Source: a virus (Duplodnaviria > Caudoviricetes). From it: a DNA stretch of 63,807 nucleotides. The notes beneath the pieces were generated by a model. That model was not told the DNA's origin and searched no databases. It worked only from the letters and a program-made list of their open reading frames with translations. Numbering within the stretch: the stretch's first letter is position 1; every line of letters starts with the position of its first letter. A program made the translations under genes and the position numbers. The stretch is taken from IMG/VR virus record IMGVR_UViG_3300050138_000202, positions 1-63,807 of that record; one strand, given 5' to 3'. Of this stretch, positions 6,312-63,807 are shown piece by piece.

Positions 6312-6333
6312 CTACTCTCCATATATCACGGTA

Positions 6334-7009: not shown

Positions 7010-7041
7010 TTCCAAACAATTCAGACACTTAGGAGAACATT

Positions 7042-8217: not shown

Positions 8218-8240
8218 GCAGTTTTTAAAGGAGATATCCC

Positions 8241-42446: not shown

Positions 42447-42606
42447 TTTTATCCTTCACTTTCTTTAATTGTAGTTTTAGTTTCCAGTTTTGTTTTTCTA
42501 ATTCTTCTATAAGTTCTTGTTTTTGCGTTACGGTTTCGCGCAGATTAGATTCGTCAAGCTCCTCTTGTTTGCAGCGAGCACAGGAGTTGTTATTACAGCA
42601 CGCCAC
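42424..42606 (-). CDS. Small coiled-coil protein
   Basis: AGGAG RBS, GTG start. Confidence 0.5.
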   Translation of the reverse strand: MACCNNNSCARCKQEELDESNLRETVTQKQELIEELEKQNWKLKLQLKKVKDKNGSPSTK

Positions 42607-47036: not shown

Positions 47037-47211
47037 ACACCCTCCAAAATCATTTCAGCAATGCCACACAAGTGAACCAAAACTTCATCCCGTCCACCTT
47101 CGTGTCCGTTTTTCCATGCCAAGCAATAAGCCTCAGCGGCATGTGGATGCCCTTCGAGGCCCACTGCCTTGATTGCTTGGATTCTGAATAGCTCCCATGC
47201 AATTGCGTCCA

Positions 47212-47736: not shown

Positions 47737-47907
47737 TTCAGACTCTCTTTGTTCGTTTGGTTTAAGGCTACTATCTCAAAAACGATTTCGCGCATATCGT
47801 CATAACTTTCACCTTCGCATACCAATAGGCCATTGGCAAGCACTTGGAACGTCACGATCTTATTTGGTATATCAACGTGGCCAACTATGTCCAGTTCGCC
47901 TCGCTGG

Positions 47908-48234
47908 TTACCCAACGATACGCTTAGCAGTTTCACTATCCAACTCCTTAATGGCGTCACCATCGTCACCATACTCTGACATATGGGCGACGATTAAGGC
48001 CAATGCCGTCAACTCTTTCCTGATAGGCTTGTCGTGTATGATGTGAAGCTTAACGAGGCGCTGACTCTCGGTCTTTCTCGCGGTAGCCAAGATCTTTTGT
48101 AATCGCCTATTGCTGTTAGCATCGACCAAAGTAATCTCAAGCGTACCATCGGCAATCAGGCTCGTCAGTTCGTAGAACGCCATGTTGATAGCGTCCTCTT
48201 TCTTTTCCACGTTGAGTTGATCAAATGCTTTCAT
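47908..48234 (-). CDS. Hypothetical protein
   Basis: GGAGG RBS. Confidence 0.6.
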   Translation of the reverse strand: MKAFDQLNVEKKEDAINMAFYELTSLIADGTLEITLVDANSNRRLQKILATARKTESQRLVKLHIIHDKPIRKELTALALIVAHMSEYGDDGDAIKELDSETAKRIVG

Positions 48235-48605
48235 GTTCCTCCAAGGAAATCAAGTTCGGCGTCGTCTTCGCCTCTAAATACGCAGGTTGAATCTTTGGTC
48301 ACTAAGGGCTTGATTCGTCCCCACAAAATGTAATCGTCGCCGATCTTTTCGCCCGTGAACTCTTTGATCACGTAGAATTCCTCTTCCTCTGTCAGTTCAT
48401 AGCGAAAGGCTTCAAACATTTCAGCAAGATCCGTGGAGTATTCAAACTCATCGGCCCAGCAATAGACCTTCTTTCCCGGTCCACGCTGCACACTACCAAG
48501 CGTATCGCGCTCTTCGCGCAGCTTCTTGAATACGTTCAGTAGTTTTAGACGTTTCGATTTTGGGATACGAACGCACAATTCTGTGGGATTGATGCAGTAC
48601 CCCAT
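48231..48605 (-). CDS. Hypothetical phage protein
   Basis: MGY start with GGAGG RBS; FTGEKIGD, FRGED. Confidence 0.65.
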   Translation of the reverse strand: MGYCINPTELCVRIPKSKRLKLLNVFKKLREERDTLGSVQRGPGKKVYCWADEFEYSTDLAEMFEAFRYELTEEEEFYVIKEFTGEKIGDDYILWGRIKPLVTKDSTCVFRGEDDAELDFLGGT

Positions 48606-48606
48606 A

Positions 48607-48900
48607 CTAGCCTCCGATTTGCGGTTTAGTAGCTTCGTACAACTCGACAAACTTTTGGTTGAGACGCGAAATCTCGTTCACGATAGATCGATAGCCATCT
48701 CCTGTGCCAGTAAACGTGCTCAGTTCGCCATGTAGTCTCTCTAGCTCATCACTAACTGCATCTGTCAAGACCTCAAAATCACTTCTGGGACCTTTTGGTG
48801 CAGGCTGCGGTGTTGGTAGCAGTCCCTCAGCAATTCGGTAGGCTACGATGCTGCCGACTATCAGGCCAATAACCACTACGACCGTTGTTGTGGGCTCCAT
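48607..48900 (-). CDS. Membrane-anchored hypothetical protein
   Basis: N-terminal TM. Confidence 0.6.
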   Translation of the reverse strand: MEPTTTVVVVIGLIVGSIVAYRIAEGLLPTPQPAPKGPRSDFEVLTDAVSDELERLHGELSTFTGTGDGYRSIVNEISRLNQKFVELYEATKPQIGG

Positions 48901-49100
48901 TACTTACCTGCCTGTTTGATCATTAGCTTCGTGCGGACCTTGGAACTATTGCGCTGCATCTTATGATCGAACGATAGCTTGGCATAAGCGGCCTGACGCG
49001 CCTCAGCCTCCGTGCGTTTGCGAAGTTGATTCGCAGCCTTTGCGCCGCTCTTGCGGTTGTTTAACTTCTTGCCCGTCTTGACCAATGAATCGATTGCCAT
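48900..49100 (-). CDS. Small basic protein
   Basis: Abuts both neighbours. Confidence 0.55.
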   Translation of the reverse strand: MAIDSLVKTGKKLNNRKSGAKAANQLRKRTEAEARQAAYAKLSFDHKMQRNSSKVRTKLMIKQAGK

Positions 49101-49478
49101 TTAAGCCGCCTTTAGTTCTGGTTGTACTGGAATACGTCGTATGTCCAGGTTATGTGGATCGAAAATTCGCTTTCCATCTAGAGCAATTGTCTCGTTCACT
49201 TCGTGCATCTCCAGGAGTATCAGACTATCTCTGATGTGAGAAATGTGCGACGATTCGTTGCACTGTTCTAAATCCTTGATAGCACTTAAACTTCCTACTT
49301 CGATTTTGGTTTCACTGCCATTATCGACGTCAAACGCGTGCATCCAAATGCTGAAGTACACGTAGCCGTCAGGACATGGAGCCCACGCGTTGCGCCAACT
49401 CCTGTGCTCTATCCTGAAACATCTCCTACCTTTGTAGGTCAGACTGAGAGAAAGCTTTTCAAGTTCTGCCATTGTCAT
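49101..49478 (-). CDS. Hypothetical phage protein
   Basis: EMHEVNE..DGKRIFDPH motif. Confidence 0.6.
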   Translation of the reverse strand: MTMAELEKLSLSLTYKGRRCFRIEHRSWRNAWAPCPDGYVYFSIWMHAFDVDNGSETKIEVGSLSAIKDLEQCNESSHISHIRDSLILLEMHEVNETIALDGKRIFDPHNLDIRRIPVQPELKAA

Positions 49479-49483
49479 AACGC

Positions 49484-49723
49484 CTACTTGGTTAAAAAGT
49501 CCACGAGCATCTGAGCTAGGTCCTTGTGGAAAAACATCGCCACGACGCCAATAACGAACGGAGAAGGCTCCACAACTAATACGATGATACCAAGAACGAT
49601 TGATGCGCTGAATGCAAGATACAGTCCGTAAACAGACGCAACCAATGCGAATACAATCCACGCTAAAATCATCAGGTATCCAACTACTCCAAGACTTACC
49701 AAAAGACCAAATAGCGCTTTCAT
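49484..49723 (-). CDS. Small membrane protein
   Basis: Hydrophobic; AAGGA RBS. Confidence 0.6.
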   Translation of the reverse strand: MKALFGLLVSLGVVGYLMILAWIVFALVASVYGLYLAFSASIVLGIIVLVVEPSPFVIGVVAMFFHKDLAQMLVDFLTK

Positions 49724-49736
49724 GTCCGTTCCTTTG

Positions 49737-50273
49737 TTAAATGGTTTTGTCTTCCGTTGCAATCAAACGCTTGGGGAAATTCTGTTTCACAAACTTCGCA
49801 AGTATCTTTCTCAAGCGCTTGTTTGCCAGTTTTGTTTTCGGAGTGCGAAAACGCTTTTGGGAAAACAGGCCTTCAAAGAGCATGCTGAGGGCAGATAGGT
49901 GCAGGCCCTGTTTAGATGCCAAGGTAGCGATCTTGAAAAGCTTTTCGGGATCACGCGTATTGGTTAATTTTAATCCGCGAGTATTACCTGCGAATTCATT
50001 AGCGAAGCTTTCCACGGTCGCATTCGTGACAATGGCTGCGGCGAAATCGCTCAAAGGTCCAACCTCTTCTTTTTTACCAAGAGCGCAATCCAGGATGCCA
50101 CCAACCGCACATACAGCGCATTTGCTGTTGTTGGTCAATTTCTTGTCGGCCTTTCTGAATGGCACTACGCCGCCAGTGATATCGTCACGCTTGATGTGGA
50201 ACCATTTATTACCACGAAGCGGCTCAGTGCGAATCGCTTGCAGCACCTGTTTGCGCGTTACATTTAGTCTCAT
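49737..50273 (-). CDS. Hypothetical protein
   Basis: AGGAG RBS; CAVCAVG. Confidence 0.65.
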   Translation of the reverse strand: MRLNVTRKQVLQAIRTEPLRGNKWFHIKRDDITGGVVPFRKADKKLTNNSKCAVCAVGGILDCALGKKEEVGPLSDFAAAIVTNATVESFANEFAGNTRGLKLTNTRDPEKLFKIATLASKQGLHLSALSMLFEGLFSQKRFRTPKTKLANKRLRKILAKFVKQNFPKRLIATEDKTI

Positions 50274-50605
50274 ACTTGCTCCTTTTTGTAAAGTTTATCA
50301 ATCACCAATTGCATTCTCTTACGTCCCACTGGATTCGAGGATACTATCTCGATCTTGCCAGGCAGAATACTCTCGCGTCCAGCCGCAACCTCTTCCTCTA
50401 AGAAGCACATTATATCGTATCCAGTCCACTCTTTGCCATTTGCATCAAATGAATTCAGATCATGGTCCAGTAATAGCAAGTCCCATGGTCCCATCTTAGA
50501 TAGTGCATCAAATCCTGCACGAGCATTACGTGCGATGAGATCGATTCGCCTCATTATGTTTGGCGCGTCTTCCATTCGTGTGTCGTCGATCAGTAGCACT
50601 CTCAT
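50270..50605 (-). CDS. Cyclic-phosphate-processing receiver (cREC-type) domain protein
   Basis: LIDDTR, LDHDL, TGYD, SSNPVG motifs. Confidence 0.8.
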   Translation of the reverse strand: MRVLLIDDTRMEDAPNIMRRIDLIARNARAGFDALSKMGPWDLLLLDHDLNSFDANGKEWTGYDIMCFLEEEVAAGRESILPGKIEIVSSNPVGRKRMQLVIDKLYKKEQV

Positions 50606-50944
50606 CGTGCCTCCTGACATATGGCTATTGCGATAAACATGCCACAGCTAACTTGAGGGAATAATTGGGTTATCACAATAGAACGGCGTCGAACTTTTAG
50701 ACTAAAAGAATAGTCCAAATCAGCATTATTCACTGATTCTGGACTATTAGAGTAGTGTGGCGAACTTTTGGGCGGTGTCATCGGCTTATACACCCTATGA
50801 TCTTGCCAAGCCTAGATTTGAGGAATTGGTATTTGTGGTAGCAGAAGGTAGAACAGAAAACTGGGCCGACAAGAGGCCCAGCGTAAACAGCTATTGAACA
50901 ATGGTAGCATCGTCTGGAATGAGGCACCTGGAGCGGCTTGTCCA

Positions 50945-51652
50945 TTAGTGATACAGATTAGCCGCAGGCAACGCTGCGCCGTCCATTTTGATAACGAGAG
51001 CAAACTGTCCCGCTCCACTTTGAGCATACAGAACGCTGAGAGTGTGGACGCCTGTGCGTAGGTTTTTAGTGCCTACAGCGGTCGTTATGCCGTGATTGCC
51101 ATCGTTGTTGGTCACTTGGGCACCATCGACCGTCAAGATCGCGCCATCGTCGCTTGCCACGCTAAAACCGTGGTAGCCATCCTCAGTCACCACCAATTGG
51201 CCTGAGCAGCTAATTCGGTAGTTATTACTGGTGAATAGGCTTTGAATCTGTGGATCGATAATGTTGTTAGGGCCTGAGTTGCTATTAGGTTGATTGAATC
51301 CGTTCACTCCCAAGAATGCAAACGATGTGCCAGTTAATACGATGCCGCATGCTGCGCTCAATGGATTGGCAGTGCAAGTCGCAGCTACATAGTTCGGGCT
51401 CGAAGTGGATAGGAATCCTCCAGAGCTAATCGCCTGCACTGAGCATGCCATTCCAGAGGACAATTCTGTTTGACCAAGGGTTTCGCGGTATGCGTTTTCT
51501 GAATCAACCAGTTGCTGCACTGTGGTTTCGGGAGTCACGGGAGCGGCAGGACCTTGCGGACCTTGCGGGCCAGTAGCACCTGTGTCGCCAATAGGCGCTG
51601 CGCAAGCGGTTAGCATACCGATGACCAGGATGGTCCATAATACATTCTTCAT
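50945..51652 (-). CDS. Lipoprotein with short collagen repeat and PA14 domain
   Basis: Lipobox LTAC; GATGPQGPQGP; SDDGA..NDGNHG. Confidence 0.8.
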   Translation of the reverse strand: MKNVLWTILVIGMLTACAAPIGDTGATGPQGPQGPAAPVTPETTVQQLVDSENAYRETLGQTELSSGMACSVQAISSGGFLSTSSPNYVAATCTANPLSAACGIVLTGTSFAFLGVNGFNQPNSNSGPNNIIDPQIQSLFTSNNYRISCSGQLVVTEDGYHGFSVASDDGAILTVDGAQVTNNDGNHGITTAVGTKNLRTGVHTLSVLYAQSGAGQFALVIKMDGAALPAANLYH

Positions 51653-51751
51653 TTTATCCTCCTAGGATAATAGTTAATCGACCTGATGAGATATTGCACT
51701 GTTCCAAAACCTTTATCAATAAAAATCGGCAGCTTTCTCGAATGTATACGC

Positions 51752-52276
51752 TTATTGTTTTGATACAAGCTTGCTCTTAAGTACGAGCCAAAGTCTTGCC
51801 ACACCACTCCGTATTCGAGCCCATCGACCGAGTACGGTTGTGCTATTGGATTGAGCATAATAATTTACCTCCACTTTATCAAATGCTTGAACCATCGCTT
51901 GCGTTGGCGTCATTGCCTTTGCGGTCTCAACTACTGGGCAAACGATGGTTGTATCGAGTTTGGGGTTTTCCTTATATTCCTGCATGATTGTTTTTGGCAT
52001 TTTTGCAGCCTTCTTTGCAGCAATGCATAGTGGGCATAGCTCAGCAGACTTCTTGCGATTCTTAAGCTTGCGCTCGAAGTTTCGATCACCATCGGGCCAT
52101 GTGCGCGCGACCTGAAATCCAATTCCAGCTTTTGTCACAGCGGCCATTAGCCTAGAGCCGGTTCCTTTCTTATGATGATTCAGTCTTTTAGGAAGACCTT
52201 CCATATTTTGGACAAACCCAATATAATGTTTGGCATGTCGGAATTTTTTATCAAAACAAAGCAAATACACTGGCAT
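51752..52276 (-). CDS. GIY-YIG-like nuclease
   Basis: VYLLCF..HYIG..RL..H..GTGSRL..ERKLK..CPLC. Confidence 0.7.
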   Translation of the reverse strand: MPVYLLCFDKKFRHAKHYIGFVQNMEGLPKRLNHHKKGTGSRLMAAVTKAGIGFQVARTWPDGDRNFERKLKNRKKSAELCPLCIAAKKAAKMPKTIMQEYKENPKLDTTIVCPVVETAKAMTPTQAMVQAFDKVEVNYYAQSNSTTVLGRWARIRSGVARLWLVLKSKLVSKQ

Positions 52277-52307
52277 AAATCCACCCTTCGTGGTAATCTT
52301 ACCTACT

Positions 52308-52898
52308 ATGATTCTATATAAAGTAACCAACAAAGTCAATGGTAAATCTTACATAGGGCAATCCACGCGTTCTATTGAGACGCGTTGGAAGCAGCATTGC
52401 AGAAAAACCAAATCCAGATATAAATGCACTCTTTTGTATTACGCTATTCAAAAATACGGTCCTGAAGCTTTTGAAATAAAATTGCTTGCCAGATGCAATT
52501 CTCTCAATGAGATGAATCACAGAGAAGAATATTATATAAAGCTTTTTAATACACTGTCCAAAAATGGATACAATTTGACGACTGGCGGCGAAAGTAGAAC
52601 GCCTTCCGCAGAAAGTAGGAGAAAAATGTCTAAGGCCGGTAGAGGAAGGAAGAAATCTGAAAAGCATAGAGCGAGTATATCTAAGGCCCTCAGTGGAAAG
52701 TCGAAGTCTGTTTCTCATAGATTAAACATCTCCAATTCTAGAAAAGACAAGAAGGCTATAATTTGCAATCAAACCGGCGTAATCTATGCTTCCATTGTGG
52801 AGGCAGCCAAAATTCTGAAACTCAATCGAGGTCATTTAAGCAATATGCTTTGCGGTAGAAACAAAACCTGCAGAGGCTTAACCTTTAGTTACGTTTAG
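52308..52898 (+). CDS. GIY-YIG homing endonuclease (NUMOD3)
   Basis: LYKVTNKVNGKSYIGQ, GYNL; inserted against the local strand behind AATCTT. Confidence 0.9.
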   Translation: MILYKVTNKVNGKSYIGQSTRSIETRWKQHCRKTKSRYKCTLLYYAIQKYGPEAFEIKLLARCNSLNEMNHREEYYIKLFNTLSKNGYNLTTGGESRTPSAESRRKMSKAGRGRKKSEKHRASISKALSGKSKSVSHRLNISNSRKDKKAIICNQTGVIYASIVEAAKILKLNRGHLSNMLCGRNKTCRGLTFSYV

Positions 52899-53170
52899 TC
52901 CTCTTCTTCGATTTCTAATTCATCTTCATCTTCATCGGGAGCGTTATCAAAATCCCATTTTTCTTCAAAGACAATTTCCTCTACGCGCTCGTCGAACTCG
53001 GATTGTTGGTCGTCGCTCAGTTCCTCTTCGTGATTAGTTTCCCAGCTACCAACCAAGGGTGGAGTTTCGCCATTGAAATCCTCTTCAACAAACTCTGTGA
53101 CCTTCAATACGGCTTCGATCACCGTACCATCGTCGAGTGTTATCTCAATATCTTTTTTACAACGCTTCAC
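52895..53170 (-). CDS. Highly acidic small protein
   Basis: About 36 of 91 residues are D/E; AGGAG RBS. Confidence 0.7.
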   Translation of the reverse strand: MKRCKKDIEITLDDGTVIEAVLKVTEFVEEDFNGETPPLVGSWETNHEEELSDDQQSEFDERVEEIVFEEKWDFDNAPDEDEDELEIEEED

Positions 53171-53327
53171 GTTAACTCCTTATGCCCAATAGCAGCAAGC
53201 TTGCGCTATTAGGCCCAGCATCGAAAGACCTAACAAAATGCGCTTAGTATTTGTGTCGCGCATCAAAGGGATTATTACAAAGCAATTCAATGCGCTCACG
53301 AATGCAAGCGCATCACCAAGTAAAACT

Positions 53328-53648
53328 TTATCCACCATGGCCAGCTTGCGGACCTTGAAGCATTGCCGCCACATACTTGGCTAATCCACCGGCTTTAATA
53401 ATGCCACGCAACGTCTCTGTCTGGCTAGACAGATCGGTCTCTGTCTCAACCATTGCTTGCATGAATGTTTGGCCCGTGATATCGCTCTTGTCGCGATTGT
53501 CGATTACGCGCACATCGCGTCCAGCAGTCACGAAGCCAACCAAGTCACGAAGAGTCACGTAGCATGACTCTTCGGTGTCGTACAGCTTGCGATTCTGGTA
53601 GCGCTTCACGATCTTCGTTCCATTAGCACTAACTTGAGTCGTGTCCAT
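53328..53648 (-). CDS. PhaR-type (PHA accumulation regulator) DNA-binding domain protein
   Basis: IVKRYQNRKLYDTEESCYVTL..V..G.DVRVIDN....DIT; GGAGG RBS. Confidence 0.88.
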   Translation of the reverse strand: MDTTQVSANGTKIVKRYQNRKLYDTEESCYVTLRDLVGFVTAGRDVRVIDNRDKSDITGQTFMQAMVETETDLSSQTETLRGIIKAGGLAKYVAAMLQGPQAGHGG

Positions 53649-53669
53649 TTTATCCTCCAAGGATAAGGT

Positions 53670-54434
53670 TTATTTCGAGCGTCGAGCAGTTTTCTTCTTT
53701 GCAATGAATGCACCATTCGGTCCACGTTTTGCGTGGTTGTTTTTATAGCGCAGAGTGCGCTGTCTTTTTTGTGCAGGTGTTAGCTTATGGGTGTCGAGGA
53801 AGAGTTTCAACGCAGCGCCTTTGATAGGAGCGCCAGTAGGTGCAGGCGTCATACCTTCGTCTTCGTCGTCCACAAACTTCTCGATCTTGGTGCCCTTTGC
53901 AGTGACCACAGTCTCTTGCAATGCGGCCTGTGCCTCTGACAGAACTTCAAATCGGCATACGCGCAGTTTGTTGCCAGCATATGCGTCTGGCACTGCGACC
54001 ACGTCCTTCGGATTCACTTTTACGATAACCATCTTAGGTCCGAAGCCCTTAGCCATCTCGTACCCACCAACGTGCAGGCCATGTGAGCAGCTTTTCGTGT
54101 GGTCGTCGTCAACCAATGAACGATCCATTTCACAAACTTGGCCAGGGCGATTGTCAAACTTTCCGCTGTGTGAATCTTTGAAGTCTTCACGCACACCACG
54201 ATAACCAATGAAGTGCCCGTCTTCGGTGATAGCCGCCTTTTGTGTCTCCAAGAATTTGAAGAGGAACTGGCGCGTGTGGAATGAGGGATTGGCCTGCAAA
54301 TTTGCCCAGAAGTTGAGCAATGATTTGAAGGGAATGTTTTGATTCTTGTATTCGATGATCCTCGAATTCAATTCTGGAGGCATTGCTTGGCCCTTGAGAG
54401 TCACAAACTGAATTCCTTTTACGTCGAAGTGCAT
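53670..54434 (-). CDS. rIIB: rIIB-like protein (conserved core)
   Basis: ITEDGHFIGYRGV, CSHGLHVG, VKVNPKDVVAVP, KLRVCRFEV. Confidence 0.85.
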   Translation of the reverse strand: MHFDVKGIQFVTLKGQAMPPELNSRIIEYKNQNIPFKSLLNFWANLQANPSFHTRQFLFKFLETQKAAITEDGHFIGYRGVREDFKDSHSGKFDNRPGQVCEMDRSLVDDDHTKSCSHGLHVGGYEMAKGFGPKMVIVKVNPKDVVAVPDAYAGNKLRVCRFEVLSEAQAALQETVVTAKGTKIEKFVDDEDEGMTPAPTGAPIKGAALKLFLDTHKLTPAQKRQRTLRYKNNHAKRGPNGAFIAKKKTARRSK

Positions 54435-54524
54435 CTCATTCCCCTTCTGCGCACTCAGCGCCTCACATACACAGATTAGCACAGTATCAACGCATTGCAA
54501 AATTAATTTACGCATTGTATCAAT

Positions 54525-54818
54525 TTACTTCGCTGCTTCGTATATGCCAATGATTTTGAGTTGGCCAACCCATTCGTTCGTATATGAGCCAATCAGTTTC
54601 TCGCGCACATCTAGCTCAGCCTTGTCAAGCCAAAACTGACTGTATTGCCAAGTAACTGGCTCAGCCATGCCTGGCACCAATGGAATAGCGCCCATGATTT
54701 GCACAAACGAATCAGGACCTACCTCGTACACTTTAACCATGCTGCCAGCATCTTGGTTTATTTTGAGGCGTCCCATAATGTCACGCACCGTGATTAGCAG
54801 TGTATTGATATCGCTCAT
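54525..54818 (-). CDS. Hypothetical protein
   Basis: GAGG RBS; coupling. Confidence 0.55.
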   Translation of the reverse strand: MSDINTLLITVRDIMGRLKINQDAGSMVKVYEVGPDSFVQIMGAIPLVPGMAEPVTWQYSQFWLDKAELDVREKLIGSYTNEWVGQLKIIGIYEAAK

Positions 54819-55345
54819 GATGCCTCATCTTTCTCTTTATCGAACGGACGCACAGCAGGACAGCATTTGCAATGAAATTCTGTGGTGCGAAACAAATCGA
54901 CACGTTTCCAATCGTGCGCGATACACAGAGAGCCGTGCGCATTCCGTCCAGTGTCGATTGCCAAGCTAAGCTTATCGCGATCAACTCCAGAGAACATCGC
55001 ACCGCTCTGCTCATGCAATAAATTTACCTGATTGCCGTCTCCATTGAATGATACAATTTTATAAACGTGTGTATTGTTGCCGGTGCTCTTAACAATGTCG
55101 CCAGCCTTAAGAGTATTGGCGCGAGTACCAACGGGAAAGAAGTTTTTATGCCAAGACGTGGGCGGTAGTGCGGTGCCTGGTGTGCGTACCATGATGAGAC
55201 CAGTCGTGGAGTTATTGTCCTGTGGATAGACACATAGCTCGCCTAAATTGCTCTCAATTAAAGTGTATGGATGATTCAAAATGAAACCAATGCTTGCAGC
55301 GGTTGCGTCCTGGACAGCGTAAATTAAAATGTCCCCAGCCTTCAT
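54815..55345 (-). CDS. Hypothetical protein (SH3/KOW-like repeats)
   Basis: KAGDI twice; GAGGAGG RBS. Confidence 0.55.
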   Translation of the reverse strand: MKAGDILIYAVQDATAASIGFILNHPYTLIESNLGELCVYPQDNNSTTGLIMVRTPGTALPPTSWHKNFFPVGTRANTLKAGDIVKSTGNNTHVYKIVSFNGDGNQVNLLHEQSGAMFSGVDRDKLSLAIDTGRNAHGSLCIAHDWKRVDLFRTTEFHCKCCPAVRPFDKEKDEAS

Positions 55346-55754
55346 TTTAAGCCTCCTCGTCGTATATCTTTGAGTCACCTGGCTCATAGTTTCCGCGCGC
55401 ATGTCTCAAGTCTGCAATACTCTTGCCACCCTGAATGCAATGCAAATAGGTGCCAGTTTTAGTTCTGTAGTGCGTCACATCAGTTGGTTCAAATTGAGCC
55501 ACTGGGGGTACCTGAAGGTATGCGTACACGAGTGTCGATACCGTACCAATTAGAGAAAATAACATCACGCACAAAATCACTTGATTATCGTAGTCCACCG
55601 TGTTCTCCCGTGTGAAAAATTGCGCTGCAATATCCTGGTGACGCTCCGTAATGTGCATAACAATCAGGATCTTGCGTATCCTCACTGTTGTAAGGATCAT
55701 TACTAATACTAGCACACCCAGTCAAAAATACAACGCATAAGATCAATAATCTCA

Positions 55755-56063
55755 TTACGATACCTTCTTTAATTTGGTTTTACCTGTCCCATATACGAAC
55801 GTATTGTTTATGGACTCTTTGCCCATTGGCACTTCGACAAAATAGGTTAAGCCATTCTCAAATTGAACCAATGCATCTTTGCCCTTGACCACAGCCATCT
55901 CACTCTCGAATTCGATTGTGAGAACGTATCTGTGCGTCTTGACTTTCTCGTCCCACTGGTGGGAGCAATCATGGCACGTTACTTGCAATAGGCCATTTTG
56001 AGACGGGCCTTCGTTTGCAACATTCGTGCTACCGCATTCTGGGCACTTATCCTTTTTCGCCAC
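55755..56063 (-). CDS. Zn-ribbon protein
   Basis: CPECGS..CHDC. Confidence 0.6.
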   Translation of the reverse strand: MAKKDKCPECGSTNVANEGPSQNGLLQVTCHDCSHQWDEKVKTHRYVLTIEFESEMAVVKGKDALVQFENGLTYFVEVPMGKESINNTFVYGTGKTKLKKVS

Positions 56064-56256
56064 GGCATTGCTCCAGTTCTTGCATGTTGGCCAGCATCTC
56101 ATTCGCCTCATCCATATCAGACTGTTCGTTATTGATCCAACGATTCAGTTTCTCAATATCCAAGCGCAACTCTTCGATTTGCATGGACCACCCATCAATG
56201 CGCTTGGCACACTTCTTGATTTTGTTCTGCACTAAGTCGTATGCCGCGTCACTCAT
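56047..56256 (-). CDS. Small coiled-coil protein
   Basis: Co-directional ORF. Confidence 0.5.
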   Translation of the reverse strand: MSDAAYDLVQNKIKKCAKRIDGWSMQIEELRLDIEKLNRWINNEQSDMDEANEMLANMQELEQCRGEKG

Positions 56257-56551
56257 TTGGGCACCGCAATGATTTTCTTAATATGATCCGACACATGCTC
56301 ATACTTGGTCCATGCTGACGTTAGCGCCTCAGCGCGCGAATTCACATGCACTTCGTATGCCACTGGCTGAGCATCGTAATAAATCACTACAACCACAAAT
56401 GTTTTCACAACTCACCACCAACCAAAGATGCGGCCAAAGATGGGCAAATAGATTAATGAACTGACCACCAGCGCAAATCGGTCTTTGCCTTCGTCTGCTG
56501 CGGCCACGAGTATCACATTGAGAACTGACAGGATAACGCAATAGGTAATCA

Positions 56552-57169
56552 TTAGCTTGCTCCCCAGCCAGCAACAAGTGTGCCAACTTTTCCGTGTTTC
56601 TTCAAACCCTTTTCACGCTCTGATTTAACTTGAGCATCACGCGCCTTTTCCGCCAATTTGATTTTCGCATTTAGTTTCGCAATCTTGCGCTGCAAACCCA
56701 GTGGGCGGAAATCACCCTCGCCGCATACTGGGCATTTGGTGCTACCTTGGCGCAAATTCTGCGTAGCGACCTTAGAGTGACAGCCTTCGCACGTTGCAAA
56801 CTTCGGCAACTTAACAGGAGCGCGGACCAAGGTTAGCATTTGCGTATTCAGCGCCGTAAGTTTGGCCGATAACTTTTCAACCTTGGCACTGTATTTGAAT
56901 GCGGTTTTATCCAAGAATTTGTAGCGCACAGCTACCACGAAGTCCCATTTCTGGGCAGTCTTCATGCAATATTCATGCGCAGCGTTGTAATCATCGAACA
57001 TCAAATTGGTATGATCTTTGACATCATGAACAGTTTGAAAATCGCCTGAATAGCCTTCTTGGTGCCCGTTATAGTCGCGATTTTCTTTGCGTAAATCGTT
57101 AAACTTCTCTTTGATTGCATGGAACGAAGGTGCTCCAGCCATCTCGAATTCGATATTGTGCGCGCCCAT
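56552..57169 (-). CDS. Hypothetical phage protein with Zn ribbon
   Basis: GYSGD, CEGC..CPVC; AAAGGGG RBS. Confidence 0.7.
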   Translation of the reverse strand: MGAHNIEFEMAGAPSFHAIKEKFNDLRKENRDYNGHQEGYSGDFQTVHDVKDHTNLMFDDYNAAHEYCMKTAQKWDFVVAVRYKFLDKTAFKYSAKVEKLSAKLTALNTQMLTLVRAPVKLPKFATCEGCHSKVATQNLRQGSTKCPVCGEGDFRPLGLQRKIAKLNAKIKLAEKARDAQVKSEREKGLKKHGKVGTLVAGWGAS

Positions 57170-57189
57170 AAATTACCCCTTTGTTTCGT

Positions 57190-57540
57190 TTAGTTGCTTA
57201 AAACCAATGTTCCGTTACTAATTGTGTAATTGTCCGTAACTGGTCCCAGATGTCCAGTACATGAATTGTACGTGCTGGTAAAAGTAACGGTTCCACTATT
57301 AGCGCCAGGATTGTGGTCTACCCACGTTCCCGCCTCAACGCAAGTCGTCGGCGATGTTTGACTAAGGGTGAATGTTCCTGAGCCATCAATCTGAGCAACA
57401 GCACCAACGAAGTCCCAAGTATTGATAAGCAGCGATTTGGGAGCAGGACTTGAATCATTAGAGCCGCCGCTAGAGCCACAGGCGGTCAATCCAAAACCAA
57501 TCAAAGACAAAATCATTAGACGTTTCGTATTATTTAGCAT
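57190..57540 (-). CDS. Lipoprotein (lipocalin-like beta)
   Basis: Lipobox LTAC-GSSGG. Confidence 0.7.
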   Translation of the reverse strand: MLNNTKRLMILSLIGFGLTACGSSGGSNDSSPAPKSLLINTWDFVGAVAQIDGSGTFTLSQTSPTTCVEAGTWVDHNPGANSGTVTFTSTYNSCTGHLGPVTDNYTISNGTLVLSN

Positions 57541-57797
57541 ATAATCCCCTTATTCCCCGCGTTTAGAAAGGGCGCAGTCCAGCGGGGGAACCAGACTGCG
57601 CCACAAATTGTCTGTTCTGTTGTTGATTCGCTTGCAGCGACCGACAGACACAAATAGGTAATGCACGCGATGTGCCAATCATAACTAATTGAATTCATTG
57701 TGGTATCGTAATGAGAAGCTGTCGAACTTATGAGCATTTTTATTGCGATAAACCAAATTTACAGCTATCACAATAACTTACCTATCTGAATAACTTG

Positions 57798-57827
57798 TTG
57801 ACATTTTTCATATGTTCGACGTATGAT
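57798..57827 (+). promoter_or_regulatory. sigma70-type promoter, leaderless
   Basis: TTGACA-18 nt-TATGAT, ATG 6 nt downstream. Confidence 0.6.
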
Positions 57828-57833
57828 AGTGAG

Positions 57834-58376
57834 ATGAAACGCTGCTATGTGTGCGAAGCGACTAAGCCACTCATTGAATTCTATAAAAACGTCTCAACAA
57901 AAGACGGTTTGCAATCCATGTGCAAAATATGTACCAAACGCACTCAACGTGCTACTCACATACTAGATCCATCGCGGCGCTCAGAAGGCAATAAAAAGCG
58001 CTATTATAAAAACCACGAATTAAGCAAACAGAGAGCCCGCAAGAAACATGCCAAGTTTCGTTCAGACAAACCAAATGAATTCGCAACGTATCAAGCTAAG
58101 CAAAAGCTTGCTGGATATGGTTTATCGCTAGAAGAATACGATAAAATGCTATTAGATCAAGGACATAAGTGCAAGCTATGTCCTATCATGCATATTAAAT
58201 CTAAAAGCCTATGCGTAGACCACAATCACGCGACTGGTTTGGTACGCGGTTTGCTGTGTAGATCATGCAACTCAATGCTTGGCCTTGCAAAAGATAGTCC
58301 AATCACATTGGCTAATGGTATCGCATACCTAGAAAACGATTCTCTAAAAAACACTTTTGTAAAAAAACAGTTTTAG
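57834..58376 (+). CDS. Endonuclease VII-type homing endonuclease
   Basis: YGLSLEEY..QGHKC..LCVDHNHATGLVRGLLCRSCNSMLG. Confidence 0.9.
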   Translation: MKRCYVCEATKPLIEFYKNVSTKDGLQSMCKICTKRTQRATHILDPSRRSEGNKKRYYKNHELSKQRARKKHAKFRSDKPNEFATYQAKQKLAGYGLSLEEYDKMLLDQGHKCKLCPIMHIKSKSLCVDHNHATGLVRGLLCRSCNSMLGLAKDSPITLANGIAYLENDSLKNTFVKKQF

Positions 58377-58435
58377 GACTACCCTATTAACCACTCCCCA
58401 TCGAACCCACTGGGTACCCCCTGCAAGTTTTATGC

Positions 58436-58762
58436 CTATTTGATTTCGTGTCTGAATTCTACTTCGTCGCACCATTCGTGCATTGCTTTAACGGGCTTGC
58501 CTACGAGCCTATAGACCATAGCGTCGTATAGCATGCGTAGCTCGCGCAGTGCCTTAAAATACTCGCTAGCGTCGTCACTGGTGAATATTAAGCGCTGCTG
58601 TAACCTATTATCGACATACAACTTCATGTCGTCAATACCACGCTTATCATTCCAGAATAGCGGAGATACGCAACCGATGTTTATCCACTTGTTTTCTTTG
58701 GTGTATATGCGAACTGTTGCGCCAGCTTGGTACATCTCTTTTTCAACGACAATCATAGGCAC
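58436..58762 (-). CDS. Hypothetical protein
   Basis: Co-directional; downstream of the sigma54 site at 58931. Confidence 0.55.
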   Translation of the reverse strand: MPMIVVEKEMYQAGATVRIYTKENKWINIGCVSPLFWNDKRGIDDMKLYVDNRLQQRLIFTSDDASEYFKALRELRMLYDAMVYRLVGKPVKAMHEWCDEVEFRHEIK

Positions 58763-59156
58763 CTCAACTCAATCATGCCAAAAATCCCCAATTCTGCAAG
58801 AAATCTCTAAATGATACGCCTCAAAATCGAACGTCTCAGAATGAGACAATCCCAAAATGAGATGGCATGAATATTGCATAGTCTCAATTTGAGAATCCCA
58901 ATATGAGACGTGGCCTGGAAATTGCAGAGTGCAATCCGCGTGCCAATCCCAAATTGAGACTGGCACCGATCTTGCATGCGCCTATATGTGGCACCGATCT
59001 TGCTTTGAGCGATTATGAGAATCTTTAATGATATCATATAGTTCCGAGCGCCTCTTATAACGCGTTTAAAACGATCAGTCTCTAATTGGTGCGTCTCAAA
59101 ATAGTCACATCCAATTTGCGAAATTAATGTGGCATGGCCTTTTGAATTCCTATTGA

Positions 59157-59506
59157 CCGCGCCACGCGACGCGCGCAAAATTTAGTGCCGACGATACGCG
59201 GCCACTCGAAGGCCAAATCCGGCCCAACGCCCCAAAATGAGACGCGTTATTCGCCCCGCCATTGCATTTTGCCGATCAGGTCCATGCATCGGGACCCGTT
59301 CAAATTCTCGTCGCGCCACGCGCGCCACGCGCGCTCAAGATGCCACGCCACGCGCCACAATTGATGCGCCACGCGGTGTCGCCACGCCACGCGATCTTTG
59401 CCCAGCCTCGCGGTCACGCGCCGCGCGAAATCCAGCCACGCGCCGCGCTGCGCGGTTTAAAGGCCTATTCACGCGCTGAACAATAGGGCCACGCGCCGCG
59501 CGTGGC
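59157..59506. repeat. GC-rich non-coding GCCACG(CG) repeat tract
   Basis: About a dozen GCCACG units; only low-complexity Arg/Ala ORFs. Confidence 0.75.
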
Positions 59507-59597
59507 AGTCTATGCAAAATCAGGGCCAACACAAAATCCAATGCAAGTTCTATGCCAAGTCTAAAAACGTATGCAAATCCCATGCCAAGCCTCCAGT

Positions 59598-59765
59598 TTA
59601 TGCAATTTTCGTGCCAACTAAAGAAATTGTCGTATAATAATGCGCCTTAAAATGATACGAGTCTTCAGCCTGCAATCGCTGTGCCACAACTCTATATTTC
59701 TCATTTTGAAACGTGATCTCTTGTCCCACACTGAGACGCCGCTTGCACCAAATATTGCGACTCAT
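59598..59765 (-). CDS. Small hypothetical protein
   Basis: GGAGG RBS. Confidence 0.55.
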   Translation of the reverse strand: MSRNIWCKRRLSVGQEITFQNEKYRVVAQRLQAEDSYHFKAHYYTTISLVGTKIA

Positions 59766-59786
59766 TTTGATACCTCCATGCAAAAG

Positions 59787-60014
59787 TTATGCCAACACTG
59801 CCTGTTTTTCGATTGACAGGTCTGTCTCATATTCATCCGTATAATAATCGAGCAGTTCAGAGTGTTTCGCTTTGAAACGTACCATTTTGACACCTTCATC
59901 GGCATATTCTTTTATGAGACGTTTCAAACCAATGCGTGCCAATTCGAGACTGGAATAGACCTCCAGCCAATCGCTCGATCCTGAGACATGTCTCAAAATG
60001 AATACGTGTTTCAT
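59787..60014 (-). CDS. Small hypothetical protein
   Basis: AAGGA RBS; sigma54 motif at 60034. Confidence 0.6.
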   Translation of the reverse strand: MKHVFILRHVSGSSDWLEVYSSLELARIGLKRLIKEYADEGVKMVRFKAKHSELLDYYTDEYETDLSIEKQAVLA

Positions 60015-60049
60015 ATTGATATCCTTTCGTTATGCAAGAGTTATGCCAA

Positions 60050-60178
60050 TCAATGTACCATTTCGAGACGCAATTCAAACTCAATACCATCGCGCCTCAA
60101 AATGAGACATACCGCCCAGACCTCGGCCTCTGTCTCGTAATCGAACGTCTTACCTTGATACACCACAATGTGTCTCAT
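60050..60178 (-). CDS. Small hypothetical protein (42 aa)
   Basis: AAAGGGG RBS; sigma54 motif at 60198. Confidence 0.5.
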   Translation of the reverse strand: MRHIVVYQGKTFDYETEAEVWAVCLILRRDGIEFELRLEMVH

Positions 60179-60204
60179 ATTGAAACCCCTTTGTTATGCA
60201 ATAT

Positions 60205-60876
60205 CTATGCCACTTTGTCCCATTTGGTATTCTCAAAATTCTTCGTCCCATGGTAGCACAGTCCCACTTTGAGACACGAACCCAGCGCGGCGACCATATC
60301 GTCGTCTGTCCCATTTTGATACCCTGCCGCCTCTAATTGATCCATTGTCTCAAAAACGCGCGCATGGAAATCTGTCTCAATTTGAATCAGTTTGTCTTGT
60401 TTGCCACCAAATGAGAATATGGCACGGAAATTGCTAGGCAATCGCGCTTTCTCATTTTGAAACATCTGGACCTGTTTCGTGTACGCATAGAACGAGACAC
60501 GTTTGTCCGCCTCAAAATGAGACATGATCTTAACCCATCGGTTTAGATATTCCATGGAGTAAAAGTCGCCCGCGTCATGAATTCTCACAACGAGACGTTT
60601 GGTTGATCTCTTATTGAGCCACTTTTCAATGTCTGCAATCATCATGCCAACGAATGTATCATTTTGAGTCAGTGCCAGTTTGGCTTCGTGGGCGCGCTTT
60701 ACATTCCCAAATTGATACGCGCCTTGCCGCGCATAACATCCCACAGCGCACAATCCCGCATTGGGACACGTTTTAATCCCACTTTGAGACATAAACGCTG
60801 GGATGGTCCAATTCACGTTGGTAATCCCATTTTGAGACGATTTCTTCATCTTGCTATTCTGCGTTAAAAGATCCAC
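60205..60876 (-). CDS. Gene product 88-like protein (radical-SAM-like Cys motif)
   Basis: TCPNAGLCAVGCYA, RIHDAGDF, YAYTK; GTG start after AAAGGGGG. Confidence 0.75.
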   Translation of the reverse strand: MDLLTQNSKMKKSSQNGITNVNWTIPAFMSQSGIKTCPNAGLCAVGCYARQGAYQFGNVKRAHEAKLALTQNDTFVGMMIADIEKWLNKRSTKRLVVRIHDAGDFYSMEYLNRWVKIMSHFEADKRVSFYAYTKQVQMFQNEKARLPSNFRAIFSFGGKQDKLIQIETDFHARVFETMDQLEAAGYQNGTDDDMVAALGSCLKVGLCYHGTKNFENTKWDKVA

Positions 60877-60921
60877 ACAATCCCCCTTTGATACGTTTAA
60901 ATTTGAGATCCAATGCAATTC

Positions 60922-61380
60922 TTATGCCACAACTCGCGTGTCTCGAATTGAGTCAGGTATCCGTACCTTTTTGAGACCGACCAAAGACCTTGCAAGAGTC
61001 AGGCCATCGGCCCAATCTGATGCGTCTCCATCTGAGGCGATATCAATTGCATCGCCCAAATAGTGTTTCAAAATGAGAAGACATGCCACCACGACCGTAT
61101 CATAAGGATACTGTCTCGTTTTGCAAAAATTGAATGCCTCATTTTGAGACATGTGCTCCCTAAACGACATGGGCTCACACGAACCGACTCGTTCTGAGCC
61201 ATTCACATTGAGACCACCATATGTCTTAGAATGAGCCGTGTATCCAGATAGACCACCATGTGTCTCAGAATAGTCACGTATCAATTTGGCACATTTTACA
61301 ATCGCGGTCTGATATTTCTTCTCATTTTGAGACGTTTGGCCGCGTTGGCCCTTAAAAGTCCAGTAGTGTGTATAACCCAT
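60922..61380 (-). CDS. Hypothetical phage protein
   Basis: MGYTHYW...FCKTRQYPYD; AAAGGGGG RBS. Confidence 0.75.
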   Translation of the reverse strand: MGYTHYWTFKGQRGQTSQNEKKYQTAIVKCAKLIRDYSETHGGLSGYTAHSKTYGGLNVNGSERVGSCEPMSFREHMSQNEAFNFCKTRQYPYDTVVVACLLILKHYLGDAIDIASDGDASDWADGLTLARSLVGLKKVRIPDSIRDTRVVA

Positions 61381-61601
61381 AAAATCCCCCTTTGAGACAC
61401 GTTATTGTGTCTCTATTTAATACTAACACGATACGTCAAAAAAACACAATAGCGATTCTCAATTTGGGACAAATGCCCTGAATATATCCATTATGAGACA
61501 GTACCAAAGAAAGACAACGAATATCTTTTGTCCCATTAGGAGACATTTCCACGAAACAGCTTGACTTCTCATTTTGGTACGCCTAATCCTATTTCGTCCC
61601 A

Positions 61602-61997
61602 TTATGCACCACGCTTGAACTGTCTCGTATTGAGACCAAATACCTTCGCCGAGCCATTTTGAGCCACCATATATGCCGCCTCAGATTGAAACACTGGTGT
61701 ATCAAACTGTTTCAGCACGAATGTCTCATAAAGATACGGGTTATATGTAACAATTTCACACGCATCAATCTGAGACTGATCGTGCGCCACATCTAATGCA
61801 ATTAGTGTGCCAACGACGCCAGCGTGTACGTTTTTGCGACGTTCCAATAAGACACGCTCCCTGCCTCGTTTTGAGACTTTATAGTCGCAGTCTCGTAATG
61901 AGACGAAGTTGGCATGCGCTATAACGCGTCCCGTTTTGAGACATTTAACGCTCCATACCTTCTTATGCAGGTTAAAGTAGACGAACACGCGTCCCAT
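61602..61997 (-). CDS. Hypothetical phage protein
   Basis: VYFNLHK..WSV, RKNVHA, VTYNPY. Confidence 0.75.
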   Translation of the reverse strand: MGRVFVYFNLHKKVWSVKCLKTGRVIAHANFVSLRDCDYKVSKRGRERVLLERRKNVHAGVVGTLIALDVAHDQSQIDACEIVTYNPYLYETFVLKQFDTPVFQSEAAYMVAQNGSAKVFGLNTRQFKRGA

Positions 61998-62161
61998 TAT
62001 GAGACCAATCGTTTCATTATAAGCCAAGTCGCGCGCAATGCCTCAAAATGAGATGGTTGGGCAGGCTGAGGAATTGTCGCATTTTGAGACTCTTTACCAC
62101 TCAAGCCACCTTGGATCAAAATGAGATAGTTTCCCGTTTTGGTACGTTTAGCGTTGACCAT
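61997..62161 (-). CDS. Small hypothetical protein
   Basis: AAGGGGG RBS; TAATG coupling. Confidence 0.55.
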   Translation of the reverse strand: MVNAKRTKTGNYLILIQGGLSGKESQNATIPQPAQPSHFEALRATWLIMKRLVS

Positions 62162-62238
62162 AAAATCCCCCCTTGAAAATGTTTCAATCTGAAACACTAG
62201 CCAGCGCCCCAAAAATGAGACGCTGGTATTGTCCCAAA

Positions 62239-62538
62239 TTAAGCCGCTACCGACTCTTTGCGTTCCACATTGAGACGCTTCGCGGTAGACACGTTAATTA
62301 GTCCCAATTCGTTACACTTAACGAATCCCACTTTGAGAAGAAGTGTCTCAGCATCGCACACACGGTTTGTCTCATATTGAGTCGTGGTGACGCTGAATTG
62401 GGCTGTCTCAAAATTACCCCCAGCCGCCTCAATACGAGACTTGATGGCTGCGCGTTCTTTTTCGAGACGCTTCATTTCTTGTCCCAAAGCGATAAACTGT
62501 GCCAAATCGGCGTCAGTAGGTTTGATAGCTTTTCCCAT
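62239..62538 (-). CDS. Hypothetical protein
   Basis: AGGAG RBS. Confidence 0.65.
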   Translation of the reverse strand: MGKAIKPTDADLAQFIALGQEMKRLEKERAAIKSRIEAAGGNFETAQFSVTTTQYETNRVCDAETLLLKVGFVKCNELGLINVSTAKRLNVERKESVAA

Positions 62539-62640
62539 TTTGATACTCCTGTGCCTCATTTTGAGGCAGTTTAGTGGACCATTTTGGCACACCACAAGAC
62601 CGTCCCACCATGAGACGGTCCTAGCTGTGTCAATTTAAGA

Positions 62641-62883
62641 CTATTTAGTGAAAACCCCAAAGTGTCTCACTTTGGTACGACGTACCGTTTTGATAATGTA
62701 TTGATCTAAGACAATGGACCATCTGGCTTGAATTGAGACAAGCTCACCAATCTCAAAACGAGACAGGTCCTGATAAGTCTGCAATTCGTGGCCATTGACC
62801 TCTATAGTGCCGCCTAAATCGGCTAAGCGATGTTTCGTTTTGATACGCCCTTTGGCGCTGTGGGTTTTATCTGGATTTATCAT
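62641..62883 (-). CDS. Hypothetical protein
   Basis: AGGGGG RBS. Confidence 0.55.
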   Translation of the reverse strand: MINPDKTHSAKGRIKTKHRLADLGGTIEVNGHELQTYQDLSRFEIGELVSIQARWSIVLDQYIIKTVRRTKVRHFGVFTK

Positions 62884-63807
62884 TATGAGACCCCCTAAAG
62901 ATCCTGTCTTAATTAACAGGACACAATAGACTAATGCATGGAATAGGCCAAAGAATCCTCAATGATTTCAATAGCCTCAGTATGAGAAGCTGTCGAACTA
63001 GTATACGTCTCATCACTGTGAGACATGCTAACCCTGCGAAACAGTTCTGAAAAAACGATTTTGTATAACTATTAGTCGATGCACTGGGCGTAGACACCTG
63101 GATGTACCATTATGAGGCTATGCAATCTTTACCATTGAATAGAGGTCTATTCCCCTAAGTCTTAACAGACCGGCATGAATAGACCGCGCCACGGGCCTTA
63201 TAACACGTTATAACATGCCACGCGCGCCTAAGTCCTAAGCTTAGTCAATTTAATAGGGCTAGACAAAATAGATCAGGACCATGACTCATTATGGGACAGT
63301 CGAAGAGTTTGTCTACCTGCAAAGGCTGTGCCAAGTCTCGTTATGAGAATAGCATGGTGACGGGATGCAATAGGTGCGCCAGTCTCAATTTAATACGGGA
63401 TAGGTGGGTTTTCCCCGCCTCACTTATGGTCTGTCCCACCTTGATACACCTGGCCACGCGCTGGGTTTTTGTGTTTCAAATTGAGATAATCTCTTATTGA
63501 GAATCCCTGAATGAGACTGAGTTGGCATGGCACGATAAATGCACCGCAATAAACGTCACAGCCTCACATTGAGACTAAGTTGGCATGGTCCAGAAATTGC
63601 ATAGCGTAGAGTGGCATGTCTCATATAGGGATGGCACGCTTTTTGAGGTCTGTCGAACTAACAGTGACTGAGTTTGAGACGCTATTCCCTATACACCTTA
63701 GTTCTCGCTATAAGCGCCGTGGTAAGGTGTGTGTCTAAAGTTTCGTCGCACCATAATGAGCCGCTATCTCGTTGTATTCAATAGGGAATGTCAATTTTAA
63801 GGCCCTT

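Follow-up and report, generated by a model that had tools for sequence, protein, structure and literature searches.

How might a phage use a dense set of sites resembling the promoters of the host sigma factor sigma-54 (RpoN)? We examined one such set near the right end of a stretch of viral DNA, here called the window, which is the whole of IMG/VR record IMGVR_UViG_3300050138_000202, a linear sequence of 63,807 bp estimated to be about 39% complete. The sequencing runs that contain it are labelled as peat metagenome. The major head protein (8241-9641) shares 50.5% identity, over 99% of its length, with the capsid protein of Myxococcus phage Mx1, a 170-kb contractile-tailed phage, and we therefore regard the window as a fragment of a large Mx1-related phage. 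The plus strand carries the structural genes to about 36 kb and the minus strand carries most genes from about 42 kb to the right end. The region under study belongs to this leftward arm. It consists of small minus-strand genes, two of which have Pfam families, GP88 (E = 2.7e-41, 60205-60876/60918) and Phage_L5_gp82 (E = 3.1e-35, 61602-62027), and it is strewn with copies of the element TGGC-N7-TTGC, whose GG and GC stand where the -24 and -12 boxes of a sigma-54 promoter would be. Megablast of 57000-63807 against cultured phages gave no match. The features of the region, and the weaker sites to its left, are as follows.

46983-58437, mostly minus strand: weaker sites with one core mismatch; the weight matrix scores 19 of them at 10 bits or more, 15 in the minus orientation.
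58863-59003, plus strand: four rightward sites (58863, 58911, 58961, 58989), facing a minus-strand array across a non-coding hub.
58931-58945, minus strand: copy of consensus form (TGGCACG..TTGCA); the ATG of gene 58436-58756, at 58756, follows 175 nt downstream.
59150-59510, no strand: non-coding core of 65% GC with eight direct copies of CGCCACGCGC (59160-59496), beside a stretch of 40% GC (58990-59150).
59514-59616, minus strand: four tandem sites (59602, 59573, 59543, 59514) spaced by 29-30 bp, leading leftward into the hub.
59598-62883, minus strand: leftward cluster of about nine small genes, called as open reading frames (ORFs) with a Shine-Dalgarno (SD) sequence.
59598-59765, 59787-60014, 60050-60178, 60205-60876 (GP88 family) and 60922-61380, minus strand: left part of the cluster.
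61602-61997/62027 (L5 gp82 family), 61997-62162, 62239-62538 and 62641-62883, minus strand: right part of the cluster.
59780-59794, minus strand: junction site overlapping the stop of gene 59787-60014 (V-L-A-TAA).
60034-60048, minus strand: junction site directly after the TGA of the 42-aa gene, its -12 C 20 nt before the ATG at 60014.
60198-60212, minus strand: junction site overlapping the stop of the GP88-family gene (K-V-A-TAG).
60915-60929, minus strand: junction site whose -24 box is made of codons V-A and the TAA of gene 60922-61380.
59672, 60635, 60992 and 61798, minus strand: intragenic copies in the sense orientation.
60420, plus strand: intragenic copy, antisense within the GP88-family gene.
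63319-63333 and 63367-63381, minus strand: two sigma-54-like sites, exact matches, upstream of the leftward cluster.
63524-63650, plus strand: three degenerate sigma-54-like sites found by weight matrix at 63528 (12.7 bits), 63586 (18.4) and 63632 (12.1).

The pattern TGGC-N7-TTGC occurs 29 times in the window, against a mean of 3.36 (standard deviation 1.86, maximum 8) in 100 dinucleotide shuffles, none of which reached 29. The stricter TGGCAY-N5-TTGCA gives 16 matches and its reversed control gives none. Shuffles and reversed-pattern controls thus rule out chance as the source of the excess. Seventeen of the 29 matches (five on the plus strand, 12 on the minus) fall within 58863-61006, where about 0.1 would be expected from the shuffle mean scaled to 2.1 kb; an exact recount agrees with the 17 given for this interval by an earlier, sequence-only reading of the same DNA. 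Eight of these lie in the non-coding hub (58863-59003 and 59514-59587), five at gene ends or junctions and four inside genes. The TGGCACG copies which that reading listed at 58931 (minus), 59602 (minus) and 60420 (plus) are present in the sequence, whereas the letters of the one that it listed at 63319 are in fact TGGCACA.

A weight matrix made from the window's own sites yields 46 hits of at least 10 bits, compared with 2-11 in 20 shuffles; the matrix is circular for its 21 training sites, not for the remaining hits. The hits are concentrated in one part of the sequence, with 43 of the 46 at or beyond 46.9 kb and 30 of these on the minus (coding) strand. Since they are scattered all through this part, weaker copies run along the whole leftward arm. 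Examples are the site at 56585, whose -12 C precedes the ATG at 56552 by 19 nt, and that at 55428, 69 nt before the ATG at 55345.

How closely do these copies resemble genuine sigma-54 sites? The 21 sites past 58 kb have the consensus T-TGGCA-(C/T)-R-N4-TTGC-A-T, the sixth base of the element being C in 10 and T in 11, and the A after TTGC being present in 18 of 21. Bacterial sigma-54 promoters likewise have GG and GC exactly 10 bp apart within TGGCA(C/T)-N5-TTGC(A/T), and sites of the window conform to the extended consensus TGGCAC-N5-TTGCW with this fixed spacing of -24 GG and -12 GC. For comparison there are 29 intergenic Salmonella sites enriched by chromatin immunoprecipitation (ChIP) of sigma-54 (PMC3844500, section 11). 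Counted by hand, 28 of the 29 begin with TGGCA; 17 have C as the sixth base and 11 have T; and the exact pattern TGGC-N7-TTGC is found in 13 only. Because the exact pattern fits so few of the Salmonella ChIP sites, the phage copies are of strong consensus, at the upper end of the distribution of real sigma-54 sites. The first 15 nt of the site at 58863 are identical to those of the site listed under STM2809 (PMC3844500).

The placement of the sites is next to be considered. The sequence-only reading proposed roughly one site per small gene. This is so at four consecutive junctions (60915, 60198, 60034 and 59780) and not elsewhere; the genes at 61602-62883 have no junction copy of the motif. 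It had also noticed that the -24 box can overlap the stop codon of the upstream gene, and at 59780, 60198 and 60915 the upstream proteins do end in V-L-A, K-V-A and V-V-A, respectively. Two more sites are linked to stops, that at 59602, which lies wholly in the last seven codons and the TAA of gene 59598-59765, and that at 60034. In the leftward cluster nine of 10 sites are on the coding strand. Some sites are located upstream of the cluster and upstream of gene 58436-58756, yet four of the 17 fall inside genes. Of the pair at 63.3 kb, one site is 484 nt and the other 436 nt upstream of the first ATG of the cluster (62883), with GAGAC abutting both -24 boxes. Together with this pair the degenerate plus-strand sites at 63.5-63.65 kb, which point off the end of the record, make up a divergent region.

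If the junction copies are promoters, what leaders would they give? Transcription from sigma-54 promoters begins some 11-13 nt downstream of the -12 GC. At 60915 the -12 C is 39 nt before the GTG at 60876, so that the predicted leader is 27 nt long and includes the SD sequence; this is the only normal predicted leader among the four junction copies. At 60198 the distance from the -12 C to the ATG at 60178 is 20 nt, which would give a leader of 8 nt, with the SD sequence upstream of the predicted +1. At 59780 the -12 C is 15 nt before the ATG at 59765, and GGAGG lies between the -12 position and the predicted +1. The junction copies with short leaders may serve genes further downstream, or may be mere binding sites or the borders of cassettes.

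One of these junctions appears to differ in a relative. At the place corresponding to 60050-60212, a relative about 92% similar in sequencing run X5 seems to have the end of its GP88-family gene, with one motif copy, followed immediately by the first part of the 75-aa gene; the 42-aa gene and one motif copy are then apparently lacking. The basis is a single 30-letter loose end at 60195. The alignment begins just before the site at 60198, which seems to be retained, and internal differences are not resolvable. The apparent absence of the 42-aa gene looks like the gain or loss of a cassette between repeated junctions. The window also contains, at 2913-2986 on the minus strand, a suppressor tRNA predicted by ARAGORN with the anticodon TTA, which would read TAA, the stop of the upstream gene at several of the sigma-54-like junction sites.

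The two four-site arrays converge on the non-coding hub, in which a repeat search found the eight copies of CGCCACGCGC. Inverted-repeat pairs (I1, I3, I4, I6 and I8) connect the array at 58863-59003 to that at 59.5-59.6 kb, and the four plus-strand sites are interleaved with palindromes of the form GTCYCA-WWW-TGAGAC. The minus strand of the hub (59130-59505) folds with a z score of -0.47, no sign of a structured RNA, and an Rfam scan of 57000-63807 at E ≤ 1 gave no match. Origins of the iteron type are marked by several direct repeats, an adjoining AT-rich stretch and a nearby initiator gene. The core at 59150-59510 could possibly be a replication origin or a protein-binding hub; it has eight CGCCACGCGC copies beside the stretch of 40% GC, and family searches of the window proteins found no initiator gene. 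The assembly of the source run breaks at 59160-59496 into two 115-nt variants with seven differences, which suggests heterogeneity of the repeats in this core.

The imperfect palindrome GTCYCA-WWW-TGAGAC(R) is the second and denser motif of 58800-63700. In palindrome context TGA[GT]AC has 67 hits after 57 kb, and the hexamers TGAGAC/GTCTCA number 51 in the last 6 kb as against about 20 in the first 58 kb. The palindrome also occurs inside genes, and at about six of 10 gene starts the TG of the start codon coincides with its right half-site. GA[GT]AC half-sites adjoin the -24 box at four of 21 sites, compared with 0.33 expected (P = 3e-4), and this hints at a second protein acting right beside the sigma-54 site. 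Enhancers of sigma-54 promoters, the upstream activator sites, usually lie 70-150 bp upstream. The palindromes are the candidate enhancer here, yet the same palindromes are found in the related locus L009 (64 hexamers in 12.6 kb), which lacks sigma-54-like sites. With this density in such a locus, the palindrome would seem to be independent of the type of promoter.

Are such arrays confined to this phage? We searched for tandem pairs, defined as two strict sites 28-32 bp apart. The pattern was found in 116 viral stretches, against one for the reversed pattern, and in 14 stretches in 596 Gb of bacterial genomes. These 14 were set aside as a guide to the host, being mostly contigs of metagenome-assembled genomes, at least one of which (L140) resembles a phage and has a terminase next to the array. 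The 116 viral loci contain 461 distinct sites. At positions left free by the search they show T at -27 (67%), G or A at -20 (93%) and T at -10 (54%), in agreement with the preferences of sigma-54. The spacing has its mode at 29 bp (91 pairs at 29 and 40 at 28), a figure partly biased by the range of the pattern itself. Among the loci listed the GC content runs from 0.32 to 0.61.

The genes that accompany the arrays vary. When the loci were clustered by family, together with 14 loci found via the GP88 protein, the families common to most were terminase-like (68 loci), portal-like (44) and M15 peptidase-like (40); all three are absent from the part of the window compared (40-63.8 kb). A GP88-family gene is present in 15 array loci, and within the flanks examined no gene family is common to all. 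Neither the array of locus L096 (by blastn) nor the terminase-like protein that adjoins such arrays (by tblastn) matched any cultured phage, and the arrays are thus not tied to a cultured phage of known host. Since the same 16-nt consensus and spacing recur in phages of unrelated gene content, a conserved host factor would be the simplest common reader of the motif.

We mapped six loci, chosen for their high site counts, in detail. In all six the array occupies a gap and points in the same direction as a cluster of ORFs of 60-100 aa downstream of it, and on its other side there is a module of large ORFs (420-aa and 690-aa proteins; four in the terminase- or portal-like families). This would be the layout of a stacked early-promoter region. 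Loci L030, L129 and L086 have dispersed sites, which for the most part point the same way as the ORFs and are found within or beside the gaps between them. In record G006 (locus L154), of 147 kb, 33 of 36 sites fall within 3.1-16 kb, in both orientations; at 15.5-16.0 kb of this record a minus array of five sites and a plus array of four diverge, and only short ORFs are called there. Loci encoding terminase- or portal-like proteins have, within their arrays and between blocks of sites, a short inverted repeat ATGTAG..CTACAT (L096, 2150-2680; L093, 2600-2950; L072, 12650-12894), which could be the site of a regulator or enhancer.

What is the situation in the relatives of the phage itself? A complete relative of 118 kb (G001, locus L009), whose GP88 protein is 63% identical and capsid 32% identical, has seven motif sites, a chance level, and four other records (G002 to G005) have three to eight each, again at chance level. 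Instead, L009 has at 4000-9500 a conserved junction motif of its own, AAGTTTTT-N~13-CCGATAAG, in seven copies. In the four copies compared together with their sequence, it stands upstream of a ribosome-binding site and ATG in each. Since both are found at gene junctions of related phages, this motif and the sigma-54-like element seem to occupy equivalent places. On the other hand, L069 (record G008), with a GP88 protein 69% identical over its best segment, has seven tandem co-oriented sites just past its small-gene cluster; as in the window, they lead on into DNA without genes. Directly upstream of this array, at 9140-9235 of L069, are about eight tandem copies of an 11-bp unit, ACATTGTAAGA.

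Initiation at sigma-54 promoters requires, besides sigma-54, an ATP-hydrolysing enhancer-binding protein, and such promoters are silent until this activator fires them. They are therefore an unexpected choice for genes that a phage needs at once. Is there an activator, or a sigma factor, among the phage genes? A profile search for the sigma-54 activator domain (PF00158) found none in the window or in 10 other records, so that the phage activator of GAFTGA type for which the sequence-only reading had suggested looking did not come to light. Absence from fragments proves little and it is the near-complete records that carry weight; among array-bearing records at least 90% complete the domain was found in none of three (G007, G009, G013). 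An AAA protein at 44329-45336, considered as a possible activator, matches the generic AAA family (PF00004) instead. Pfam searches of ten further ORFs at 36-50 kb gave no regulator. The DNA-binding domain of sigma-54 (PF04552) was found neither in the window nor in G006, G007, G008, G009 or G013, and no sigma-70 region 2 domain scored above the cut-off in the window, G001, G006, G008 or Mx1.

Sigma-70-like sites show no enrichment over the 6.8 kb scanned (20 versus 13.8 ± 3.8). The sequence AATCTT occurs 36 times in the window, where about 22 are expected, and only twice in 57-63.8 kb. With the one at background and the other so sparse in this part, a three-tier scheme in which sigma-70 and AATCTT promoters join those of sigma-54 finds no support here.

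With somewhat better than even confidence, we take the motifs to be sites for the host sigma-54 holoenzyme, mainly serving as promoters of the leftward, non-structural arm of this Mx1-related phage. It is the placement and orientation of the sites that make us favour promoter function. The match in sequence, the enrichment, the positions and direction of the sites and their recurrence in other phages are established, whereas binding by sigma-54, promoter activity, the source of activation and the role of the hub as an origin are inferred. A sigma-54-dependent early programme, as first proposed, is partly supported by the motif and by its promoter-like position and direction; 'early' comes solely from the gene content, that is, from small genes like those of the L5 gp82 and gp88 families. 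Starting at the 63.3-kb pair, transcription would run into the small-gene cluster and might re-initiate at the copies embedded in the four gene junctions. The battery of four sites at 59.5-59.6 kb would feed the next leftward genes through the repeat-rich non-coding hub, while the facing battery at 58.86-59.0 kb would read into the same hub, perhaps activating an origin. Activation would have to be supplied either by enhancer-binding proteins of the host, possibly from solution, or by some phage factor that has escaped recognition, and many stacked sites would raise the chance both of capturing holoenzyme and of firing.

Several observations weigh against this interpretation. To judge from the sizes of known footprints, sites 28-30 bp apart could not all hold open complexes together. 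With a start 12 nt downstream, the junction copies at 59780, 60034 and 60198 have predicted leaders of just 3-8 nt that lack an SD sequence. The plus-strand array at 58863-59003 has no co-oriented gene, the next plus-strand ORF with an SD sequence being more than 3.9 kb away. There is the missing activator domain noted above, and the window holds merely about 39% of the genome, so that 61% is absent. Finally, Mx1, the nearest cultured relative, has only three motif sites in 170 kb, and the feature is consequently not a trait of the clade. It is the close packing, the plus array without genes, the short leaders and the lack of an activator that oblige us to weigh two further explanations.

Could the motif be read by a factor of the phage's own, an unrecognised sigma factor, RNA polymerase or DNA-binding protein, its likeness to sigma-54 sites being convergent or incidental? 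There is room for such a gene in the missing part of the genome and among the small proteins, most of which have no family match. The use of other motifs by close relatives is what phage-specific systems would lead one to expect, and the half-sites that abut four of the -24 boxes might belong to such a reader. We nevertheless consider it unlikely. The same 16-nt consensus with its fixed spacing extends across contigs of very different GC and gene content, the array loci have no gene family in common in the flanks examined, and the searches for sigma-70 region 2 and for the sigma-54 DNA-binding domain were negative in the records named above.

The second explanation accepts sigma-54, or its holoenzyme, as the ligand and takes the sites to be mainly a sink, a roadblock or a pre-loading platform instead of productive promoters. 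As a sink, the thousands of copies present after replication would titrate sigma-54 away from the stress and defence operons of the host; as roadblocks, closed complexes sitting inert at the gene junctions would adjust how much transcription reads through. The tandem spacing is about the footprint of one closed complex. The plus array that faces no gene, the junction copies that would leave the SD sequence out of their transcripts and the lack of an activator gene in the records searched also speak for it. In Salmonella, too, there are many intragenic sigma-54 sites of unclear role (PMC3844500). We think it improbable all the same as the main function. A pure decoy has no need of the co-orientation with genes seen at nine of the 10 cluster sites, and in the six other loci mapped the arrays are placed, and oriented towards small-gene clusters, as early promoters would be. 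Moreover, since sigma-70-like promoters are not enriched here, something other than sigma-70 must drive the genes of the cluster.

That the copies are a by-product of duplicated junction cassettes or recombination repeats, with no regulatory role, is very improbable: the junction copies at 59780 and 60034 do share TTGGCATAACTNTTGCATAAC beyond the core, and the apparent loss of the 42-aa gene between two copies in the relative would fit recombination, but the GG/GC cores and their spacing are invariant where the spacer bases vary, the same core recurs in non-coding arrays and in unrelated phages, and the strand bias is strong.

A broader proposal, which we put forward tentatively and hold to be unlikely as a whole, is that tandem sigma-54 batteries are a widespread and undescribed phage device. 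Host holoenzyme would be captured on them in closed complexes, loaded in advance and spaced by about 29 bp. The batteries would then either fire early genes by a novel trigger of phage or host origin, with no canonical enhancer-binding protein, or drain sigma-54 from stress and defence operons. In the present phage the trigger would perhaps be a protein that binds the GTCYCA-WWW-TGAGAC palindromes next to the -24 box.

How do these sites compare with known systems? They differ from bacterial sigma-54 promoters in their phage location and their density (17 in 2.1 kb, with tandem batteries at 28-30 bp), in having neither a cognate activator gene nor a recognised enhancer, and in that several copies are built into stop codons and lie so close to start codons that the SD sequence would be excluded. 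In phages, a sigma-54-like promoter with a mapped start site, P015, has been described in Pseudomonas phage YuA (PMC10914365). YuA and the phage of the window would have this type of promoter in common; there it is one promoter and here there are dozens of sites, including tandem arrays, and the two phages are unrelated as far as compared. A literature search, covering a limited set of papers, found single sigma-54-like phage promoters, whereas phage arrays of sigma-54 sites, whether dense or in tandem, were not reported in that set.

The early promoters A1-A3 at the left end of T7 are of the sigma-70 type, are more than 100 bp apart and need no activator. They are strong promoters for the host polymerase, stacked upstream of early genes, and the six mapped array loci resemble them in arrangement. 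The PeSL cassettes of T4-type phages are mobile and consist of sigma-70 early promoters with stem-loops that flank small early genes; the window has in common with them repeated junction sequences with a small gene apparently present or absent between the copies, and no stem-loop is evident at its junctions. Intragenic sigma-54 sites, reported in E. coli as well as in Salmonella, are comparable too. In Salmonella such sites lie within genes or at gene ends and may point either way, and their function is uncertain (PMC3844500). In these two bacteria intragenic sites amount to about one per 70 kb of chromosome, in contrast to the phage sites, which are clustered and mostly of strong consensus.

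If the sites are indeed promoters, some phages may run their early genes by the sigma-54 transcription route of the host, and a whole set of uncultivated phages would thereby make the onset of infection depend on what the sigma-54 regulators of the host are doing, or else carry an unknown means of firing the sigma-54 polymerase. If they are sinks, they would be a DNA-based means of disarming a host sigma factor.

Other genes of the window deserve brief mention. On the plus strand, a 641-aa protein (20867-22792) has a domain like the minimal CRISPR polymerase (mCpol) or Cas10 palm (E = 1.5e-10); in Mx1 a 'nucleotide cyclase' is annotated close to the capsid gene. Two plus-strand proteins of the structural arm (10474-11442 and 27216-29996) have ice-binding-like domains (PF11999, E = 8e-52 and 1e-28). 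The minus strand encodes a protein with a match to an adenylosuccinate synthetase-like family (73-1338), a tRNA-His guanylyltransferase-like protein (42593-43381; phrog_4717, E = 1.4e-84) and an RIIB-like protein (53670-54515; phrog_609, E = 3.5e-49).

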